Made by a program: the position numbers and the translations under genes. Shown here piece by piece: positions 13,079 through 52,000 of a stretch of DNA of 64,000 nt. Location: sequence record PZ151149.1. The stretch is one strand, 5' to 3'. The notes beneath the pieces were generated by a model. That model saw nothing but the letters and a program-made list of their open reading frames with translations. It searched no databases and was not told where the DNA came from. This stretch comes from a phage. How positions within the stretch are numbered: the first letter of the stretch is position 1; every line of letters starts with the position of its first letter.

Positions 13079-13312
13079 TTATTTTACCTCTGGGATATAA
13101 TCAATTATTAAAGAAAATTCATCTTCTGATACATTATAGCTATGTGAGATTGTACCCGTAAAGACCTCAAGATCCGGTGATTTGATATTGCAAGGATCGA
13201 TAATCACCGGAACGCCGCAATCTCTCAAAAATAATTTGGCGAAATACGGCACGAGGTCAGTTTCAAACTCTGCTTCTTCCAGCAAACGGGAAATGTTAAT
13301 TTTCAATCTCAT
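13079..13312 (-). CDS. hypothetical protein
   Basis: 77-aa ORF overlapping start of gene 55. Confidence 0.4.
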
Positions 13313-13829
13313 AAAATTGGTCCAGGCTAGGCAATTCCTCGGTCAATACATCTTCAACCTTTGGCGCTTTCGGTTTATTGACCGATTCCTCGTAGTTGTT
13401 GATTTTATCGTAAATGTCCTGTATGAATGCCTCATCCGCAATCTGGCACATATCAGCGTCGCGTTCGTCATATACATGATGCACAAAATATTTGTATTTT
13501 GCGGCTGTCGCTGTTCTCTCTTTTTTAATGCGCTGTACAAAAGCATTAAAGCACGCTTGCGTGATGTAAGCATGAGGATTTTTATACTTTGTCTCGTCAA
13601 AATTAATCAAACCCTTGACCGCCGCTTCGATTCCGTCGTCGATCATTTCTTCGCGCCATGTTTGACTATAACCAGAAAAGTTAAAACGACGTGATAGATT
13701 TTTAGAGATTTGCATAATTGCTAGGCCGATTTGATCGCTCATTGGAACTTGCCGACCTTCTGCTGCAATTTGTTGTTTCCAACGGCAAATTTCTTCGTAA
13801 AGCTCTTTATTGTTTACATAATCAGACAC
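13296..13829 (-). CDS. 55: Late transcription sigma factor gp55
   Basis: High identity to T4 gp55 ([59 protein letters not shown]); apparent GTG start with GAGGGTG SD. Confidence 0.9.
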
Positions 13830-13869
13830 TTCGCACCCTCGCTATTATTTAGGAAATAACCCTTTCGGG

Positions 13870-15339
13870 CTATTCCCCATTACCATTATACTTTCTTTGC
13901 TTAGTTATCCACACTCTAACCATCTCTACTGATTCACCGTCAGACGGATCAAGAGTTTTTCCTTTTTTCTTCATGCGATACTTAAATCCGTTAAATCTTG
14001 CATTCTCTTGCTCGTTAAAGTCGAACATCTTTTTAAATGATTTTCGCCCTTTACGCTCACCACATTCTAGCGGAATCATTCGGTCTGTTATTACATTGGC
14101 ATTAGGTAGAAACGTTTTTAGATAATCCACCAAAGCCCAATCAGGAACATATAGATTAACATTCTCCTTGCTATCGTTGTCTCTCAGGTTACAACGCAAA
14201 CATAATTGAAATGCTGGTTCCAGATAATCAGACACATGACGCGCTTTCAAAAACTCGTTTGTCGGGAGATCACAACTATTAGCAAGACCTTTTAAAATAT
14301 CAATCTCCCATCGTTGAGGGTTAAAGCTGAACATCACAGCAACATTTTTATGATGAATGTAAGAGTTAAGACCATAAGATCCGTAAGGTATCCGCTCACC
14401 AATACCATTTGTGCACGCTTCACGGTCCCGATTCACTGTATAAATGAAGTTATCACCACATTCATTTTTAACCATATCAACAAGACGTTCAAAGGTATTG
14501 TTTGTTTCTGACTGGTGACGCGACCATCGTTCGGAGTCCGTCATAAGGATGATGTTAACTCTATCTGTATTTTTATACTCTTTGAAATATAGTCTGGATT
14601 CTAGCGCACTCGGAACAAAATCGCAATTTGCATAGTATCGTAGATACTTCCCACTATATGTATCAAAGAGATTTGCACATGCTATCGTAACCTTTTTAAA
14701 GTCTCCCCATGTACCGTGTTTGTTATCGTTCAAGAAAACAATTTTCGACCCATTCTTCCGGTGTCCTTCGTTATGTTTTACCATAACGTTGATTTTCTTC
14801 TCTAATAACGCCTCATAAAGCCCTCTAAGAGAAGAATCGATCATATCAGTACCATCCTTTGCACTTTCTATCTTTTCTTTGATAGCGGCCTTCTCGGAGT
14901 CTTTTAGAACTAAGTTCTGTAGACATTCCGATTCGTCGGCGATTGGTTCGCAATGCTTCGTGATAAGTTCAAGATTAGACTTAAACGGATACTCATTAAA
15001 TTCAACCAGTTGAGGAACTTCATCAATGTAAAGCGCATAATCACCAAACATTTTTGAACGTTCCATATTAGATAACGCTGTATGTGTAATGAATATCACA
15101 TCAGCACCATCTTTAACTGATTGCATTATCGACGCTTGCACTGTCTTAAGGCTTCTTAGTCTTGTGCTATCAATCAAGACAGCACGACCGCCCATTCTTT
15201 TAAACTTATTGTAAGATTGTTCACTTAAAACACGAGATGGCGAAGCAATAACCGCTTTTTCTTTTGTCTCTAGGACGTGGGAAAGTATAGCATCAGTTTT
15301 CCCCGCCGCTGGCAATGCGATTAATGTTTCAATCTTCAT
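13870..15339 (-). CDS. Uncharacterised P-loop NTPase, helicase-like N-terminal domain
   Basis: 489 aa; Walker A ALPAAGKT, VIASPSRVL (motif Ia-like) and YIDEVPQ (Walker B-like); no match recalled to known T4 genes at this locus. Confidence 0.6.
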   Translation of the reverse strand: MKIETLIALPAAGKTDAILSHVLETKEKAVIASPSRVLSEQSYNKFKRMGGRAVLIDSTRLRSLKTVQASIMQSVKDGADVIFITHTALSNMERSKMFGDYALYIDEVPQLVEFNEYPFKSNLELITKHCEPIADESECLQNLVLKDSEKAAIKEKIESAKDGTDMIDSSLRGLYEALLEKKINVMVKHNEGHRKNGSKIVFLNDNKHGTWGDFKKVTIACANLFDTYSGKYLRYYANCDFVPSALESRLYFKEYKNTDRVNIILMTDSERWSRHQSETNNTFERLVDMVKNECGDNFIYTVNRDREACTNGIGERIPYGSYGLNSYIHHKNVAVMFSFNPQRWEIDILKGLANSCDLPTNEFLKARHVSDYLEPAFQLCLRCNLRDNDSKENVNLYVPDWALVDYLKTFLPNANVITDRMIPLECGERKGRKSFKKMFDFNEQENARFNGFKYRMKKKGKTLDPSDGESVEMVRVWITKQRKYNGNGE

Positions 15340-15626
15340 TAGAAACCCTTACGTCGTGCTTTCTGGCATTTCTTGATCATTTTATCAGAAATTTCGCGCT
15401 TAGGTGCAATCTCTTTCACACCGAAAGCACTAATGCCAAATTCAGAGAGAATATATTCAACCAACAATTCACGCACACGCGTTTTACCGATATTCACGCC
15501 GTTATTTTTCAGATATGTCTGGCCTTCGACTTGCATCAGATCTAAATCTGCGTCGGTAATATTGATTTCTTCCATGCGCCCAAATCGAGAATAAACCATG
15601 TGTGCGATTGCATTGTGTACTAACAT
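15339..15626 (-). CDS. hypothetical protein
   Basis: ATG at 15626 with GAGGAA SD. Confidence 0.45.
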   Translation of the reverse strand: MLVHNAIAHMVYSRFGRMEEINITDADLDLMQVEGQTYLKNNGVNIGKTRVRELLVEYILSEFGISAFGVKEIAPKREISDKMIKKCQKARRKGF

Positions 15627-15650
15627 AATATATTCCTCACTCAAGAATTA

Positions 15651-15806
15651 CTTAATGATACTTACTTTACCAGATCCATGACAATGAGCGCAACACCCAT
15701 CACCACGCAATCCTGTTCCGTTACAGTGTTTACACTTCTTCAACGGTAAAGTCATTATAGCAAATAAAGCAATAATGAACACCGAAACTAAATTCTCAAT
15801 AATCAT
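15651..15806 (-). CDS. possible small Cys-rich membrane-anchored protein (51 aa)
   Basis: Unlisted short ORF MIIENLVSVFIIALFAIMTLPLKKCKHCNGTGLRGDGCCAHCHGSGK; start overlaps upstream stop. Confidence 0.25.
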
Positions 15807-16065
15807 AAATCGCCCTCAGTTCTTTATAGCCTCCAATGTGCTCGTTGTCAATGAATATCTGGGGGTATACAAACCGGAGGCTCTTTGAGTTTAGCCTCCC
15901 CGCCAGTTCTTCAATCATATCACGGTCGGGAATAATGTCAACCCCGACCTGCTTGAATACTGGTTTAAGTGTATACGGAATACCCAGATCATCCAGTAGC
16001 TTCATTGCACCAATACAACCATAACAATGATAAGCCTCTTTCGGTATGCCGTATATCTCGATCAT
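15796..16065 (-). CDS. nrdH: Glutaredoxin-like protein (NrdH-like)
   Basis: 89 aa, CYGC redox motif near N-terminus, position between 55 and nrdG as in T4. Confidence 0.65.
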   Translation of the reverse strand: MIEIYGIPKEAYHCYGCIGAMKLLDDLGIPYTLKPVFKQVGVDIIPDRDMIEELAGRLNSKSLRFVYPQIFIDNEHIGGYKELRAIYDY

Positions 16066-16538
16066 TTCTCAGCCTTTAATCTTTCTAGTTCTTCTTCCAG
16101 TTCCTTGATCCGTTGGTCACGTTCAAAGTCACGCTGTAGCTTAGTGGCAAATACTCGCTTAAACTGATTGTAATCATCGATTTTAAACACTTCTTCTTCG
16201 CCATAGCGACGCACAGAAACTTCGTAGTTATTGAAGAATTGTTGCATCATTGCTTCGGATGATAGCTCTGCTGATACCACTTTAAAATATTGATCTTCTG
16301 TAGGCGAAAACCAATTACAAGCATAAAGATAAACCTTTTCATTGTCTGGACACTGGTAAGCCTTACCATCGATTTCAATCACAGAAACATATTCAGGTAT
16401 ACTAGATGAATCAATAGCTAAGACTTTAAACGCACGGTCCCCGATAAACTCGGAGATCACACGATTCGCATCACTGGTTGCAAATGCTTTACGCGCTTGT
16501 TCGTTTTTCCACTGATAGGTCATACCAACAACAAACAT
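16062..16538 (-). CDS. Member of expanded paralogous domain family (one repeat + coiled-coil tail)
   Basis: MFVVGMTYQWKNEQARKAF...VIEIDGKAY...YF motif shared with neighbouring ORFs; ATG at 16538. Confidence 0.6.
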   Translation of the reverse strand: MFVVGMTYQWKNEQARKAFATSDANRVISEFIGDRAFKVLAIDSSSIPEYVSVIEIDGKAYQCPDNEKVYLYACNWFSPTEDQYFKVVSAELSSEAMMQQFFNNYEVSVRRYGEEEVFKIDDYNQFKRVFATKLQRDFERDQRIKELEEELERLKAEK

Positions 16539-16539
16539 A

Positions 16540-17364
16540 TTACCAACCTCGCTCTTTACCAATCAAAAATTCAACTTCACGACGTTTAATGTCTTCTTGA
16601 AGGTCTTTAATCTTCTGGCGATCTTGCATGATTTCATCCATCTTGTCAAGTGCTGTAATGAAGTCATCGAAACGTTCAAAGGTTTTACCTTCATTTGCTT
16701 CGCCAAATTTAACCATTGTCAGGCCGTAACGACTACTAAACAGACGTTTCAACTGTCCAACGATTTTAGAATCAGTGGTTATAACTTCCAATTCTTCTAC
16801 TTCACGAAAGAATTTTCTATCAGAATCAATAAACCAGCTAGTTCCTTTATGGTCTCTATCTTCGGTTGCGCTCATTAGAGTATGGTCTTTACCATCAATT
16901 TCAATTACATCAATTTGCCCACATGGACTAACATTTTTAACAGTAAAAGGTCTATAATTTATTGCTCGTGCAATAACATAATTAAGGTTAGATACGTTTT
17001 CAGCATAATGACAGAAGTCGGTCATAGCCTTATCATCTTTCCAAGTATAAGTTTTACCAACTTCCCATTTCTGGGGAACTTCTTCAACTTCACGAAAGAA
17101 TTTTCTATCAAATGGACTAAACAAATATGTTGACTTCCAAATGTCTTTTCCTGTAGCAGTTTTCGCCGTATGATAAACACCGTCTAGCTCTATTGCATCA
17201 ATCCAACCGTTACCCTCGATCTCGATGATGGTAAATGGCTTGTCACCAATAGCTGCACTAATATCGCTGTTAAGTGGAGAAAGAACACCTTCTCCGTTAG
17301 TAATAAACTCAGTTTTAGCGTTTTCGTCTTTCCAAGTGTAAGTTTTACCAATTTCCCATTTCAT
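16540..17364 (-). CDS. Member of expanded paralogous domain family (two tandem repeats + coiled-coil tail)
   Basis: Two internal copies: MKWEIGKTYTWKDENAKTEF...IELDGVYHT...DRKFFREVEEV and QKWEVGKTYTWKDDKAMTDF...IEIDGKDHT...DRKFFREVEELE. Confidence 0.65.
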   Translation of the reverse strand: MKWEIGKTYTWKDENAKTEFITNGEGVLSPLNSDISAAIGDKPFTIIEIEGNGWIDAIELDGVYHTAKTATGKDIWKSTYLFSPFDRKFFREVEEVPQKWEVGKTYTWKDDKAMTDFCHYAENVSNLNYVIARAINYRPFTVKNVSPCGQIDVIEIDGKDHTLMSATEDRDHKGTSWFIDSDRKFFREVEELEVITTDSKIVGQLKRLFSSRYGLTMVKFGEANEGKTFERFDDFITALDKMDEIMQDRQKIKDLQEDIKRREVEFLIGKERGW

Positions 17365-17376
17365 AATATATTCCCC

Positions 17377-17862
17377 TTAACCGATTTTATCAAGTTCGTT
17401 TAACGCTTTCTCTGCTTCCTGTATAGCTTGCACCCTTTCCGGCATTTTGTCAAGAAAATCTTTCAACTCTTCAAAACTGGAGATATGACGCAAGGCGTTA
17501 GCACCGATAGCCGCATGTGATTTGCATTCAAAGCGGATTTTATAATTATCCATAGCCAATTTGAGAAGATCAATTAGATCATGTTCATGACCAGGCAATA
17601 AAACTTCTTTGAAGCACGCTCGGTCGGCATCGGAAAACCATATATTATCACCAACATCGATAGAACTAATATAATCCCCTTCGTGATTATAGATTGAACG
17701 TACATTACCCCAACGGTCTACCGTAGCGACAGTAAATGGTTTATCTAGATATGTAAACACACCATCAATATTAGGTTTTTGTTCGTAACGCCAACCATCA
17801 CGCAAAATACGCTTTTCGTCCTCACCAACCAACTTATATGTCTTCCCTTCTTCCCATTTCAT
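17377..17862 (-). CDS. Member of expanded paralogous domain family
   Basis: MKWEEGKTYKL...DADRACFKEV; start at ATG 17862. Confidence 0.6.
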   Translation of the reverse strand: MKWEEGKTYKLVGEDEKRILRDGWRYEQKPNIDGVFTYLDKPFTVATVDRWGNVRSIYNHEGDYISSIDVGDNIWFSDADRACFKEVLLPGHEHDLIDLLKLAMDNYKIRFECKSHAAIGANALRHISSFEELKDFLDKMPERVQAIQEAEKALNELDKIG

Positions 17863-17866
17863 AATA

Positions 17867-18394
17867 TCATCTCTCATTTTTGATACGTGATTCTAATTGG
17901 ATCATACGGTCGCGCGTTTGCTTATATTCGCGGATAGCACCGATTCGGCTAGGCATACCATCCAGTACGCTCTTAATACCTTCTAGGGTAGTGATTTTAG
18001 CAATGCTATTATGCAATCCTGTCTTATCGATCAACTGAATGTCGTAGGCTTCCATAAGCAGACCCAGACGTTCTAAAGTTAGGTCTTCTTCTTTTTCTTC
18101 CGATTCTGGAATCTTAGGTTCAATAGTAACTTCGGTAAAGAAACGACGCTCACCCGACCAAAACCACACGCCGGAACAGCCAATAGGGGATTCTTTTAAC
18201 GTCATAGAGTCGAAATTACTACCAATAATAGTAATTTCTCTAACATCACCATCATCATCAAGGTCTTCTACCCTAAACGGGCGACCAGCCAACAAGTCAA
18301 CAATACATCTGTTAATAGACGACGAAAATTTAGTCAGTTCGGCTTTCGACGCTTCGCATTCAATCTTGTAAGTTTTACCAACTTCCCATTCCAT
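17867..18394 (-). CDS. Member of expanded paralogous domain family
   Basis: MEWEVGKTYKIECEASKAEL...GERRFFTEV; ATG at 18394 with GAGGTGA SD. Confidence 0.6.
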   Translation of the reverse strand: MEWEVGKTYKIECEASKAELTKFSSSINRCIVDLLAGRPFRVEDLDDDGDVREITIIGSNFDSMTLKESPIGCSGVWFWSGERRFFTEVTIEPKIPESEEKEEDLTLERLGLLMEAYDIQLIDKTGLHNSIAKITTLEGIKSVLDGMPSRIGAIREYKQTRDRMIQLESRIKNER

Positions 18395-18404
18395 AATAAT
18401 CACC

Positions 18405-47508: not shown

Positions 47509-48042
47509 CTAAAAATTTAAACTAGCATAATCTCCAAAATGTTCCTTTGCTGCTTCGTCATAAGCCTTTGCAGCATCAACTTCGTCAAGAAAGACGCCCA
47601 AATGGACCTTTCTACGATTGATTGATATCTGAGCACACCATTTGTTATTCTGTGTTCTAATCACTCCTTTATACTTACTCTTACAACCATCAAGTTTTCC
47701 GCGATTGAATGCATTTTCCTGAGAAGTGGATTCTCTCAAGTTATCCGGTGCATTATTTTCTCGGTTTCTATCTATATGGTCGATCATTTTAACTTGCGTA
47801 CCATGTTCAAGATACCAAACAACCCTATGAACTTTAATGACCAAAGAATAGCCATCACTGCGCCAAAACTTAAAACATAGATAACCTCGACTATTTTTAT
47901 AAACTTTAACCGGGTCTCCTGCCTTATACCATCGACCATTCTTTCCACTATCTTTCAAATGGTACAATATACCATTAACGTGTTTATACTTATCTCTAAT
48001 TTCTTTTTGTGTAAAATCATCCCACATCTTAAACCCAGACAT
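47509..48042 (-). CDS. Free-standing HNH-AP2 homing endonuclease
   Basis: HNH motif IDHIDRNRENNAPDNL and AP2-type DNA-binding domain YKGVIR...WCAQI...VHLGVF...AAKAYDEAA; ATG with AGGAG SD. Confidence 0.7.
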   Translation of the reverse strand: MSGFKMWDDFTQKEIRDKYKHVNGILYHLKDSGKNGRWYKAGDPVKVYKNSRGYLCFKFWRSDGYSLVIKVHRVVWYLEHGTQVKMIDHIDRNRENNAPDNLRESTSQENAFNRGKLDGCKSKYKGVIRTQNNKWCAQISINRRKVHLGVFLDEVDAAKAYDEAAKEHFGDYASLNF

Positions 48043-48262
48043 ACATTTTCTCCTGATAATATTATTAATAACAACATCAATCTAACATATCTAGTATATA
48101 ATGTCAATTGTCGCTTTGCGACGTGCCGTAGGCACTGACTACTTTTTAACCGAAACAAATTTTCTATATTCTAAAGATCTTTCTTCGTTTTGGTTATGTT
48201 TTAACCAATAACTATATTTTTATACAGTAATAAATAAAACTGGTACTATACGAGGACTTCTT

Positions 48263-48517
48263 ATGACAGAAGACATTTTGTTAAAACTCTATGATCGTTT
48301 GGATAACGAATTAGCAACATTGCGGGGTGAAGTTCTCTATTTGTCTAAATGCAATACAGATCTGATTAAGCAGATTGCCGAAAGGGATGACCAAATAAAA
48401 TCCCTTTCAGGCGCATTACGTGATCGCGACAAGGCATTAGAGATTTTACAGCGTGTAACCAATAAAGAAGAGTTGAAAGACTTTCTACATGGTTATGCTC
48501 ACGCCATCGATCTATAA
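48263..48517 (+). CDS. hypothetical coiled-coil protein (isolated plus-strand gene)
   Basis: 84-aa ORF, GAGGA SD 6 nt upstream, followed directly by a hairpin terminator. Confidence 0.45.
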   Translation: MTEDILLKLYDRLDNELATLRGEVLYLSKCNTDLIKQIAERDDQIKSLSGALRDRDKALEILQRVTNKEELKDFLHGYAHAIDL

Positions 48518-48520
48518 TAA

Positions 48521-48548
48521 AAAGCCCGTCAATGACGGGCTTAATTTT
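48521..48548. terminator. Bidirectional hairpin terminator
   Basis: GCCCGUC-AAUG-ACGGGC flanked by U tracts on both strands; sits between convergent genes. Confidence 0.55.
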
Positions 48549-49575
48549 AATATGTATCAGCTAATTTAATTATGTTATCAAGTTCCGTGATTGGTAAAGT
48601 TTCTGTGTATCCATCTTTCAACATGGATTTATCAACAACGCCACAATGATAAGTTCTCTTTATTTCCTTTTCAAGTTCCCACGGAATCCAGCCATCAACA
48701 CTTTGTTTGACGTAAACAAGTTTGTGAACAAACTTAGATTTCTGCATATGTTGTTTCATTCTGGTTTCCGGTAATTCATTGGTTACACCAAACTTTATAA
48801 ATTTATCATCTAACGTCTGGATATAAAAATATCCCATCTCAGATGGACGATAGCCAGAAGAACTACATTTCGGACACCCTTTAGCATTTCTGTTGAACGT
48901 ACAATATCTTACAGAAAATTCGGCGTCATGTTTTGTACATTTAAGTTTTATCCATGAATTTGCAGTACCTATCCATTCACCATCGACACCTATATATTCA
49001 TACCCTAACTTTTTACATTTATCTTCTATTCTAGATAGTGCATCTTCCACGGGAACGACATATTCCGTCTTAAATTGTTCAGCCGCACATTTCTTACAAC
49101 CACATGTACCATGATTTTTAAAATCAAAGAACTTTGTATTCTTCCAAATATGGTCATGTTTCTTGCATCTAAGAATCATCTTAGTAATTTGTGATTTCCA
49201 GCCACCAACAAATCCCAAAAATTCATAATCAAGATCTTTACATTTTTCTTCAATGAATTTGGTTGCTTCATCTTCTGTCATAACTCCCCTACATTGAGGG
49301 CAACCAACAATAACCTTTTTAGCATAGAAACTATTACTGGAAACATCATAGACAGTTCCATGCTTATTGCATTGGATAACAGATCTAGTCAATTTTCCTT
49401 TCCATTCTCCAGTAAATCCTAAGAATGTATGGTCGACAAGTTTACATCTTTCAATAACTTTATCTGCAAACTCTCTAGGAGATTTTGTTACCTTGTTTAC
49501 TCTGTATTCTATTTCTTCCGGTTGACGAAGATCATAAACGTGGGGATTTCTCCCCACGGAATTAATATTAAGCAT
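48547..49575 (-). CDS. Zinc-finger-repeat protein with C-terminal T5orf172/GIY-YIG-like domain (putative homing endonuclease or DNA-binding protein)
   Basis: Three ~45-aa repeats each with C..H ... C.KH ... GCP.C; C-terminal GYFYIQTLDDKFIKFGVTNELPETR resembles T5orf172; start ATG 49575 overlaps stop of gene 2. Confidence 0.55.
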   Translation of the reverse strand: MLNINSVGRNPHVYDLRQPEEIEYRVNKVTKSPREFADKVIERCKLVDHTFLGFTGEWKGKLTRSVIQCNKHGTVYDVSSNSFYAKKVIVGCPQCRGVMTEDEATKFIEEKCKDLDYEFLGFVGGWKSQITKMILRCKKHDHIWKNTKFFDFKNHGTCGCKKCAAEQFKTEYVVPVEDALSRIEDKCKKLGYEYIGVDGEWIGTANSWIKLKCTKHDAEFSVRYCTFNRNAKGCPKCSSSGYRPSEMGYFYIQTLDDKFIKFGVTNELPETRMKQHMQKSKFVHKLVYVKQSVDGWIPWELEKEIKRTYHCGVVDKSMLKDGYTETLPITELDNIIKLADTY

Positions 49576-50389
49576 CTTTCCACACCTTCCTTGCATCATA
49601 GTTTTTACCTTTAGAAACAAATTTATATGTGTTAAGGTAGATAATATTGCTCCAGTCTTTCGGGCTAATCTCAACAAGTTTTGTTTTAATGTGTCCCGGT
49701 AGATATGCTTTGATCATGTGGTCACTACCACGCATACCTTTTACATCACTCCATTTAATCTTCAAGCGTGTTTTATTGCTCAAGGTAGGAGTAGATGCAT
49801 ATTGCTTTAAAAGTGCTTCCAGAAACTGCTGACGGGCTTTAGGCGTTACATAGTGTAAGTTAAGACCCAGCATTACAGTATTACCCGCCTTTGTCTTAGA
49901 ATCACCCAGACAAATGATCAGCGGGAAAACATCCCAATATGGCAAAGTATCTTTATACTTCGCATCATACATAAAGGTATAGATTCGCCCTACTTGCGGT
50001 TTTACAATCTGGTGTCCCTTTATTCCAGCTTTTATTGTTTTAGTAAACCACTCCTGTGATTTTTCTTTAGGACGACTCTTTGATACAGCACGCATAGACG
50101 CACGAAAATCATTAATCATCATCATTGCGCGTTGCTGCTTATTGAGACCCTTTGCACCTTTCCCTTTTAGTTTTTCAACTTCTATTGCTGTTTTAATTTC
50201 GCTGGCATAACGAGACATACTTTTAGTGAAAGTCGCATAGGCTATTCCCTTAGAATCTGCAAATGCTTTAGCTGTCATTCCTTTGGCTTTTGCTTTCGCA
50301 AATTCTACACCCAATTCGACCCACTGTTTAGACTTTCGCTTTTGGGGAGACGGCTTTTCGTCTTCTGTGATTATTTCAAATACGCTCAT
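49568..50389 (-). CDS. 2: DNA end-protector protein gp2 (by synteny and length)
   Basis: 273 aa from ATG 50389 with GAGGA SD; position between gene 3 and gene 4; call rests mainly on gene order. Confidence 0.5.
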   Translation of the reverse strand: MSVFEIITEDEKPSPQKRKSKQWVELGVEFAKAKAKGMTAKAFADSKGIAYATFTKSMSRYASEIKTAIEVEKLKGKGAKGLNKQQRAMMMINDFRASMRAVSKSRPKEKSQEWFTKTIKAGIKGHQIVKPQVGRIYTFMYDAKYKDTLPYWDVFPLIICLGDSKTKAGNTVMLGLNLHYVTPKARQQFLEALLKQYASTPTLSNKTRLKIKWSDVKGMRGSDHMIKAYLPGHIKTKLVEISPKDWSNIIYLNTYKFVSKGKNYDARKVWKDA

Positions 50390-50423
50390 AATATTGTCCT
50401 CTATGTTTATGTTTGTTACACAC

Positions 50424-50452
50424 TTGACAATCCTCTTTGCTATTGCTAAAAT
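50424..50452 (+). promoter_or_regulatory. sigma70-type promoter TTGACA-17-TAAAAT for plus-strand HNH gene
   Basis: Exact -35; plus strand; 60 nt upstream of ATG 50516. Confidence 0.45.
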
Positions 50453-50515
50453 GCAGACGAAAATAAACAGCGATACTTGTTGATAAATATCATTATAACA
50501 CAGGAGGAACATTAG

Positions 50516-51538
50516 ATGCAAGATATTAAGAACAAAATTTTGATGCAGTTTCCGAATGCAGATATCAAGTATTTAGAAAAGTATCTAGAAATTTGTGCAA
50601 ACCCAGATAAGGATGGGGAATTAGAGAGGCATCATATTCTACCAAAATCAATTTGGAAGGAATATGAAGACCTTAAAATTCATGATTTTAATGCTGTTCA
50701 CTTGAACACCGTTCGTCATATGATGGCACACTACTATTTCAGTAAAGCAACAAATTCCATTTGGAAGTCTGTTGTTATGATGTTTAATACCAGAATTGAT
50801 ATTATGAAGGAATTGCCAGAAGATATTGTGTTGAAACTTGCTGGTATATCAGAAGAGGCAAAGCGAAAACATGTATACACGGAAGAATCTAGACTGAAAA
50901 TGTCGGAATCACAAAAACGTTTCATGGCTTCTCTTGATGAAGAAGAATTAAAACGTCGCCATAAGAAAAGAACTGATTCCGTTAAAGAACATTTTAGAAA
51001 CTTGAGCGATGAAGAACGAGAAAGAAAGTATAAAGAACGTGGCAAGAAAATATCAAAGGCGTTAAGTAATAGATCAGAGGAAAAACTTAAATTACGAAGA
51101 GAAAGGCTTCTACAAACTATAAACTCAAAGTCAGACGAAGAAAAACAAAGAATCGCCAAACTACTTTCAGATTCACAAAAACCGAAAGAAACATGGGGAA
51201 AATTTGATGAGTTATATGCATTATGGATTGATCTGAATATGCCGGGTCAATATGTATTCAAGCGCGAGGCCATTAAACGTGGATACCCAGATAGGTCATA
51301 TGATTACATCGTTAAAGAAATGAAAAATAAGTACATAAAGGAGAATGGAAACGACATAATAAAATTAAATCCCAGAAAAAATTCTGGTGTCTGGGTATAT
51401 TATGACGAAATATATAAGCTGTGGAAAGAAAATGGTATGCCTAGCGATAGAAAAACAAGAAAAATAGCGGTCGAGAATGGTTATCCCGACCAATGCTATC
51501 AAACTATAGTAAAAGACTTTAAGAACTCACTTATTTAA
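50516..51538 (+). CDS. Free-standing HNH endonuclease with C-terminal repeat domain
   Basis: N-terminal ERHHILPKSIW...N..HLNTVRHMMAH HNH motif; two C-terminal repeats (YDEIYKLWKENGMP...ENGYPD and FDELYALWIDLNMP...KRGYPD). Confidence 0.65.
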   Translation: MQDIKNKILMQFPNADIKYLEKYLEICANPDKDGELERHHILPKSIWKEYEDLKIHDFNAVHLNTVRHMMAHYYFSKATNSIWKSVVMMFNTRIDIMKELPEDIVLKLAGISEEAKRKHVYTEESRLKMSESQKRFMASLDEEELKRRHKKRTDSVKEHFRNLSDEERERKYKERGKKISKALSNRSEEKLKLRRERLLQTINSKSDEEKQRIAKLLSDSQKPKETWGKFDELYALWIDLNMPGQYVFKREAIKRGYPDRSYDYIVKEMKNKYIKENGNDIIKLNPRKNSGVWVYYDEIYKLWKENGMPSDRKTRKIAVENGYPDQCYQTIVKDFKNSLI

Positions 51539-52000
51539 ACCTTTAAAACCGAACACCTTTTTTAATGTGTGTTCGGTTATGATTTTAAATTCCATATTAT
51601 GTTTTTTACACAATGCTACTGCCGCTGCCCACTTTTCGGTATTTTTCGTCCACGTCCAAGCCTCCATCATATAACGCTGCTTTGTTTTAGTCGTTAATCG
51701 CTTTGGCTTTTCTGGTGGTCTAGTCTCTTTGGCTGGCTTAATTTCCCATAAATGCTCTTTTCCATCATCAAACTTAACATAAACATCAACAAAATATCTG
51801 TGACGCTTACCGTCTGTTGATGAATTGTAAGGAATTACAACGGTCTCAGATCCCCATTTAACCACATGAGGATTACGGTCACACCATTTAAAAACATGCA
51901 ATTCCCAGCTTGAACGGTATGTGATTTTCCGTATATCCCCTTTATACTTTTCCTTATTCTCAGGAACATACTTGCCCTTATAAGTGTTAGATCCTCCCAT
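51527..52000 (-). CDS. 4: Head completion protein gp4 (by synteny)
   Basis: 157 aa; divergent from gene 53 as in T4; YRSSWE...KWG...YFVDVYVKFDDGKEHLWEIKP. Confidence 0.5.
   Translation of the reverse strand: MGGSNTYKGKYVPENKEKYKGDIRKITYRSSWELHVFKWCDRNPHVVKWGSETVVIPYNSSTDGKRHRYFVDVYVKFDDGKEHLWEIKPAKETRPPEKPKRLTTKTKQRYMMEAWTWTKNTEKWAAAVALCKKHNMEFKIITEHTLKKVFGFKGLNK

Follow-up and report, generated by a model that had tools for sequence, protein, structure and literature searches.

For replication and recombination, T4 serves as the reference system, and the roles of its three helicases are well defined. Within helicase superfamily 2 (SF2), XPD/Rad3/DinG constitute the major family whose members carry an inserted domain, the Arch, between motifs II and III. 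Kazlauskas et al. 2018 (J Mol Biol 430:737; PMC5862659) reported fusions of AEP primases with a remote SF2-like domain. In the same study, pVOG1685/pVOG9714-like putative helicases of "some T4-like phages" were listed as uncharacterised proteins with no more than remote SF2 similarity that occur in mobile elements as fusions with AEP primases, this group was predicted to make up a novel family of helicases in viruses and plasmids, and the members of pVOG9714, one of its two related groups, were found to be most similar to UL9 (PMC5862659).

The window analysed here, i.e., the whole stretch of 64,000 nucleotides of sequence record PZ151149.1, derives from a Krischvirus genome (RB49/JSE/Phi1 type). 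On its minus strand it carries a gene for an SF2 helicase-like ATPase of 489 aa (13870..15339), which starts with ATG and was delineated by the ORF listing, PHROG 2467, an alignment of homologues, and a structural model. The encoded protein is an uncharacterised, divergent member of a familiar enzyme class, the SF2 helicase-like ATPases. With a probability of roughly 0.55, we consider it to be an active SF2 DNA helicase or ssDNA translocase of XPD/DinG-like architecture that serves as an accessory replication or recombination factor. Established here are the ORF and its conservation, the integrity of the catalytic motifs, a predicted fold, the gene neighbourhood, and the domain fusions seen in relatives; the preference for DNA over RNA, the unwinding activity, its polarity, and the biological role are inferred.

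Identity, conservation, and genomic context

The orthologue in JSE (EpJSE_00045, annotated as "hypothetical protein") shares 99.6% identity with the 489-aa protein, and PHROG 2467, a family without known function, spans the protein from end to end (E 1.2e-174). By tblastn, homologues were detected in 244 phage records, 238 of which reached a coverage of at least 80%. Carriers include Krischvirus, Pseudotevenvirus (RB16), Tulanevirus and other Aeromonas phages, Bragavirus (Proteus), as well as phages of Serratia, Morganella, Erwinia, Cronobacter, Enterobacter, Citrobacter, and Klebsiella. Among 41 homologues with 32-74% identity, no variation was seen at residues G13, K14, T15, D106, E107, Q378, R382, and R386, and the same catalytic residues are invariant in 41 distant relatives with 18-27% identity. 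Due to this invariance in close and distant relatives alike, the protein is regarded as an enzyme that is kept active and not as a decaying P-loop protein. The ORF is a genuine gene and no chance frame; its base composition resembles that of the remainder of the window.

In databases, homologues are named either "hypothetical protein" or, automatically, "DEAD/DEAH box helicase family", in agreement with the preliminary description, which had called the protein uncharacterised. A search of the protein against NCBIfam gave no matches, and no biochemical or genetic characterisation of the gene or of any family member was found in the literature. Probably, what has been flagged by Kazlauskas et al. 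(PMC5862659) is the same group as the family of the 489-aa protein. Given the automatic helicase names and this earlier flag, the gene does not represent a new kind of system.

The gene belongs to the early region for replication and recombination (gp41 to gp47, gp55, nrd). Downstream of it are the genes of the late sigma factor gp55 (13296-13829), a-gt.4, a-gt.5, and gp47, and upstream a gp55.2 homologue, a 52-aa CxxC ORF, nrdH, four paralogous ORFs, and nrdG. In T4 the same slot is occupied by the unrelated 87-aa gene 55.1. Thus the slot between sigma factor 55 and the nrd genes is variable among T4-like phages, as had been proposed before. A derivation of the 489-aa gene from T4 55.1 by expansion was rejected, since no similarity was detected.

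The gp55.2 homologue situated directly upstream (15339..15644, minus strand; Pfam DUF7570) shares 42% identity with T4 gp55.2 (E 5e-20), and the start annotated in JSE corresponds to the ATG at 15626. The TAA at its end shares a nucleotide with the start codon of the 489-aa gene (TAATG), and overlaps of 1 nt or 4 nt with the upstream gene are annotated in JSE, RB16, PM2, and phiAS4. Considering 29 T4-like IMG/VR loci, a 55.2-family gene is located upstream of the helicase-like gene in 25 and directly abuts it in 18, gp55 is found downstream in 22, and nrdH upstream in 26. In RB16-type phages, 55.2 and the helicase-like gene are still paired, with gp55 located elsewhere. In case of the Tulanevirus type, a 191-aa gene separates the two and assumes a 4-nt start/stop overlap with the helicase-like gene; it was seen in phiAS4 (L002 4429-5004) and in the IMG/VR loci L024-L026 and L042, and its designation "DprA-like" is a PHROG label only (phrog_768; no Pfam match). 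Host topoisomerase I is inhibited by T4 gp55.2 (PMC4396842). A joint role of gp55.2 and the 489-aa protein in DNA topology or R-loops is conceivable. T4 retains 55.2 without the helicase-like gene.

Just upstream of the 55.2/helicase pair, a sigma-70-like promoter match was found (TTGTCA-18-TATCAT, 10 of 12; 15655..15684, minus strand), which, as a match to the consensus only, is consistent with early expression of the pair. Within nrdH, a near-consensus sigma-70 match with an upstream TG (TTGACA-16-TATGAT, 11 of 12; 15914-15941, minus strand) is directed at the CxxC ORF, 55.2, and the helicase-like gene. The CxxC ORF itself (52 aa; 15648-15806, minus strand), situated between nrdH and the 55.2 homologue, has a hydrophobic N-terminus and a zinc-ribbon-like CxxC...CxxC pattern and matches phrog_3931 (E 4e-10). 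On the other side of the helicase-like gene, the 40-nt spacer at 13831-13869 (minus strand) contains a CCC-GAAA-GGG hairpin right after the helicase stop and before the GTG start of gp55, followed by TAAATA, which resembles part of the T4 late-promoter box.

Several further observations were made in the region and in JSE. Between nrdH and nrdG, four tandem paralogous ORFs of 166, 274, 166, and 178 aa (16062-18403, minus strand) share an N-terminal module of ~90 aa (W-x-x-GKTY-x-W...), which is duplicated within the 274-aa ORF. Five of the six pairs are related by BLASTP (E 1e-5 to 8e-15), the first 166-aa ORF being linked to the second one and to the 178-aa ORF solely through the 274-aa ORF; a Pfam search of the four ORFs revealed no significant family. 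In JSE, nrdD (anaerobic ribonucleotide reductase) is annotated in two pieces with a homing endonuclease gene in between (L001 413-3035), and the homologous region of the window lies beyond 19 kb. Gene 43 (DNA polymerase) of JSE is likewise annotated as two CDSs (L008 17062-20204). At 48001-52000 of the window, the G+C content dips to 0.35-0.36 and the GC skew changes sign at ~50-52 kb, which probably reflects the switch from leftward early to rightward late genes.

A co-occurrence with particular DNA-modification genes, suggested for inspection in the preliminary description, did not emerge as a simple link, since the gene occurs in RB49-type phages and in Bragavirus PM2 alike. RB49 is described as a T4-like phage without cytosine hypermodification. 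The genus Bragavirus, to which PM2 belongs, is predicted to make modified cytosine in the form of 5-hydroxycytosine derivatives (PMC13326640). The gene as a marker of unmodified-cytosine phages was ruled out, because PM2 carries it.

Motifs, fold, and likeness to XPD/DinG helicases

The motifs ALPAAGKT (residues 8-15), VIASPSRVL (31-39), and YIDEVPQ (104-110), from which the gene was originally recognised, are all present in the translation of the 489-aa ORF. In the model, residues 1-109 form RecA-like domain 1 with motifs I and Ia, the VIFITH strand, and DEVP. Walker A/motif I (ALPAAGKT) is encoded at 15295..15318 (this and all following motifs on the minus strand), and G13, K14, and T15 are invariant. 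It is followed by a motif Ia-like element, VIASPSRVLSEQ (residues 31-42; 15214..15249), which lies within the Pfam DEAD alignment and includes the invariant residues S33, L38, and S42, by a motif Ib-like, TPGR-like strand VIFITHTAL (residues 81-89; 15073..15099) with a TH pair kept family-wide, and by Walker B/motif II, ALYIDEVP (residues 102-109; 15013..15036), in the DExP form with D106, E107, and P109 invariant.

According to the secondary structure of the model, an alpha/beta domain is inserted between motifs II and III (residues ~110-215; 14695..15012); within it, the T4-like homologues all retain C130, D165, D205, W211, and F214. The strand VTIACAN (residues 217-223; 14671..14691), whose A222 is conserved to at least 90% family-wide, is a putative motif III, assigned from its position and conservation. 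The second RecA-like domain (residues ~256-420; 14080..14574), delimited by alignment and model, contains the motif V-like YGSYGLNSY (319-327; GLN 323-325), FSFNP, motif VI FQLCLRCNLR (377-386) with R382 and R386, and VPD (398-400). The basic tail at the C-terminus (residues 420-489; 13873..14082) comprises 18 K/R versus 10 D/E, an invariant W477, and, in the model, two long helices (443-458 and 468-486), and is confined to the T4-like subgroup. The tail as a divergent HTH domain like the tails of relatives was rejected, because hhalign aligned the end of the helicase core only. An IclR match of the T4-like profile in PDB sequences was not significant (E 0.81).

Across 136 relatives, GxGKT, TH, DExP, HGLNxY, AxNxxP, YQxxxRxSxR, and VPD are conserved. 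Of the SF2 hallmarks, the 489-aa protein shows AAGKT (11-15) and IDEV (105-108) in domain 1 and a second RecA-like domain with the Q..R...R arginine fingers of motif VI. The assumption of a P-loop, helicase-like protein was borne out by the match of Pfam DEAD to residues 11-130 (E 3.4e-6; 27.3 bits, cut-off 26) and by an AlphaFold2 model built from the alignment, which predicts a two-RecA SF2 fold with confidence (mean pLDDT 88.4, pTM 0.77). The Pfam match ends at residue 130 (profile position 145 of 167), around the start of the insert. Due to this break at the insert, the preliminary description and most pipelines were blind beyond residue 110. The remaining ~370 residues, which had been considered unrecognisable, were resolved into the insert, the motif III strand, the second RecA-like domain, and the basic tail.

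A structure search, which had been recommended for the full protein, was informative. XPD, CasDinG, DinG, and Rad3 occupied the top 13 places of the Foldseek search against the PDB (E 2e-10 to 3e-7), with modest TM-scores of 0.42-0.52. XPD/DinG ranked first in both structure searches and yielded the longest structural alignments (321-370 residues), and the ~105-residue insert of the 489-aa protein is located at the position of the XPD/DinG Arch, i.e., between motifs II and III. These results bear on an alternative in which the protein is a dsDNA translocase or remodeller of the UvsW, RecG, Mfd, or Snf2 type that shifts branch points or strips RNA polymerase or nucleoid proteins from the DNA. 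We regard this as unlikely, though it is the alternative that survives best, as every double-strand translocase is outranked by XPD/DinG-type single-strand helicases in both searches, the latter aligning over about 80-130 additional residues, and a wedge or branch-recognition domain of the RecG/UvsW type was not detected. A search of PDB sequences with the wide family profile retrieved generic SF2 domain 1 only (DEAD-box proteins such as Mss116, reverse gyrase, PriA, Mfd, RecG).

Judged from the model, the likeness to XPD/DinG is one of fold level only. Single-sequence (phmmer) and close-alignment profile searches against PDB sequences revealed no meaningful similarity of the 489-aa protein, and hhalign of its family against E. 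coli DinG gave a null result (probability 0.6%). Pfam DEAD_2 and Helicase_C_2 do not match the protein and are absent from the 25 most frequent of the 56 Pfam families matched by 41 relatives. The motif II box of XPD/Rad3/DinG is DEAH, whereas that of the 489-aa protein is DEVP (DExP family-wide). Four cysteines between motifs Ia and II, as expected for an Fe-S cluster, are not present, residues 43-101 being free of cysteine. The ten cysteines of the protein are at positions 130, 139, 221, 239, 294, 309, 356, 380, 383, and 426, and only C130 and C380 are invariant. Since only ~45 residues lie between motifs Ia and II, an Fe-S domain, even a vestigial one, is absent. Furthermore, proteins of the XPD/Rad3/DinG family, including CasDinG (Csf4) and S. 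aureus DinG, which lack the Fe-S cluster, have 550-900 aa compared to 489 aa. As the likeness concerns the fold only, the protein is described as working in the manner of an XPD/DinG-type motor, without being assigned to that family.

Relatives with primase-like and HTH modules

An exhaustive profile search of the family, covering 1.84 billion representative proteins, returned 1,324 clusters with E <= 1e-3, of which 759 remain at E <= 1e-10. Two length classes of about 470-560 aa and about 750-850 aa are apparent. In 70 of the 147 closest representatives a shared C-terminal domain is present, invariably after the helicase core, and 63 of the 64 C-terminal domains of the long forms fall into a single BLAST cluster. 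Its motifs in the long forms (e.g., P0065) are LDxD/E-G, RYRxxIP, GxDxSK, and FYLPC. The domain matches PHROGs with primase annotations, namely phrog_9765 (best E 1.2e-12; matched by 10 of the 15 members), phrog_2135, phrog_17236, and, labelled "replicative helicase-primase", phrog_3228. Pfam and PDB sequence searches of the domain gave nothing significant, with PriCT_1 and RepB_primase_C below threshold (E 0.16-0.23); all its homologues are labelled "hypothetical", and it has no Pfam model. As the label "primase" derives from PHROG annotations, the domain is referred to as primase-like.

A split form occurs in a bacterial integrated element, where a 503-aa family member overlaps a 359-aa primase-like gene (L012 5527-8080) in the neighbourhood of Ku, HU, methyltransferase, and integrase genes. 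The jumbo phage Atu_ph07 carries the fused form of helicase and primase-like domain (L006 4995-7283), and the family copy of a Sinorhizobium megaplasmid is situated within a prophage-like island. The neighbours of the family genes of Atu_ph07 and PH357 are almost all hypothetical, and one long-form protein used as query had no match in IMG/VR. The primase-like domain was also observed as a stand-alone gene in alphaproteobacterial chromosomes, next to transposases and integrases (L010). Regarding the short relatives without a primase-like domain, 38 of 69 extend past the profile match by 45 residues or more; a number of these tails are HTH-like, and Pfam HTH families were found in ~5 of the 41 relatives scanned. 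In uncultured phages and integrated elements, the helicase-then-primase fusion probably marks a replication module, for most of whose length no Pfam model exists.

The fusions to primase-like and DNA-binding modules argue that the core acts on DNA in replication. Since the T4-like proteins are devoid of both modules, this argument is an indirect one for the 489-aa protein. The fusions also speak for another alternative, in which the protein would be a replication-initiator or origin helicase, comparable to UL9 or to the helicase-primases of mobile elements, and would attach to a particular phage site through its basic tail and open it for loading of the primosome. The T4-like tail is indeed basic, with 18 K/R per 70 residues, but cannot be aligned with the HTH tails that relatives join to the same core. 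Similarly, Pfam Herpes_ori_bp (UL9) matches one of 41 relatives (E 1.4e-3) and pVOG9714 members are UL9-like (PMC5862659), whereas the 489-aa protein lacks this match. Together with the retention of the full T4 set of gp41/61, UvsW, UvsX/Y, and 46/47, which favours the T4 modes of initiation, this renders an initiator function distinctly improbable. To the same low degree we consider that the family constitutes a distinct SF2 motor lineage, the unwinding module of helicase-primase and helicase-HTH initiators of phages and integrated elements, whose stand-alone form, produced along with gp55.2, would act as a dedicated initiation or restart helicase. If true, non-T-even T4-like phages would gain a protein-driven route of DNA opening which is missing from T4.

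Proposed function and comparison with known helicases

For the preferred reading, an accessory XPD/DinG-like DNA helicase or translocase, the following mechanism is proposed. ATP would be bound between the two RecA-like domains, with K14/T15 of Walker A and D106/E107 of Walker B contributed by domain 1 and the gamma-phosphate sensed by the motif VI residues Q378, R382, and R386 of domain 2. The nucleic acid would pass over the top of both domains via motifs Ia, Ib, and V. The ~105-residue insert would occupy the place at which the Arch of XPD/DinG helps to enclose and split the strands, and on the basis of this position an accessory DNA helicase or single-strand translocase, possibly of 5'->3' polarity, is suggested. 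Expressed early together with the gp55.2 homologue, it may act on replication and recombination intermediates, such as forks, R-loops, D-loops, and protein roadblocks, on top of the activities of gp41, Dda, and UvsW. As T4 manages without the gene, it is probably non-essential.

That the protein serves as a DEAD-box-type RNA helicase or chaperone for transcripts of phage or host is very unlikely. It is true that DEAD is the sole Pfam family that exceeds its cut-off, that among PDB sequences the family profile matches DEAD-box proteins best (Mss116, E 4.6e-6), and that the database names agree, but the DEAD match is limited to domain 1 and DEAD-box proteins carry no such large insert behind motif II. 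Instead of DEAD, SAT, and HRIGRxGR, which are characteristic of DEAD-box RNA helicases, the 489-aa protein displays DEVP, CAN, and QLCLRCNLR; SAT and HRIGR motifs are not visible in the alignment of homologues either, and Helicase_C is nearly absent from the family (2 of 41 relatives in the Pfam scan, E 0.023). Furthermore, the modules fused to the relatives are primase-like and DNA-binding ones. Least credible of all is a function in counter-defence or in competition between phages, for which the helicase-like motor would be employed, e.g., to displace or decoy a host defence complex, since the accessory nature of the gene, its absence from T4, its variable slot beside small host-targeting genes (T4 55.2), and the occurrence of CasDinG and the defence helicase Hna in the Foldseek list are opposed by a PADLOC search without matches, by a synteny that is stable across distant T4-like phages of several genera, unlike that of fast-turnover anti-defence genes, and by fusions of relatives that indicate replication.

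A full-length homology to a described T4 core helicase, which would have contradicted the preliminary description, was not detected: BLASTP and HMM comparisons with gp41, Dda, and UvsW of JSE gave nothing better than E 3.3, and searches of PDB sequences were equally negative. JSE encodes Dda, gp41, and UvsW alongside the 489-aa gene, and a replacement of Dda or UvsW was ruled out for this reason. Due to the retention of all three T4 helicases, the 489-aa gene represents a fourth helicase-like gene. Krischvirus, Pseudotevenvirus, Tulanevirus, Bragavirus, and T4-like phages of Serratia, Morganella, Cronobacter, and further hosts thus share a conserved, unstudied helicase-like motor. Its substrate would tell whether the carriers handle forks, R-loops, or DNA topology in a way different from T4, possibly together with gp55.2. 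Since RB49 is described as being free of cytosine hypermodification, RB49-type phages should be easy to edit and the question directly testable.

Comparing the family with described systems, the pVOG1685/pVOG9714-like helicases agree with it, as matched by description, in the remote SF2 core, the occurrence in T4-like phages, and the fusion to primases or primase-like domains. The two differ in domain order, because the primase is N-terminal in the fusions of Kazlauskas et al. (Prim+zf-CHC2+helicase; PMC5862659) and the primase-like domain is always C-terminal in the relatives described here, where the usual order of primase followed by helicase is reversed. In herpesvirus UL9, an SF2 core is followed by a DNA-binding C-terminal region, and family members are similarly arranged; the 489-aa protein differs from UL9 in its tail of ~70 residues, for which a DNA-binding fold could not be demonstrated, besides the missing Herpes_ori_bp match. 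Like UvsW (SF2), Dda (SF1B), and gp41 (SF4) of T4, the predicted ATPase would belong to the early replication and recombination ATPases of phages, and with UvsW (~500 aa) it shares both the superfamily and a similar size.
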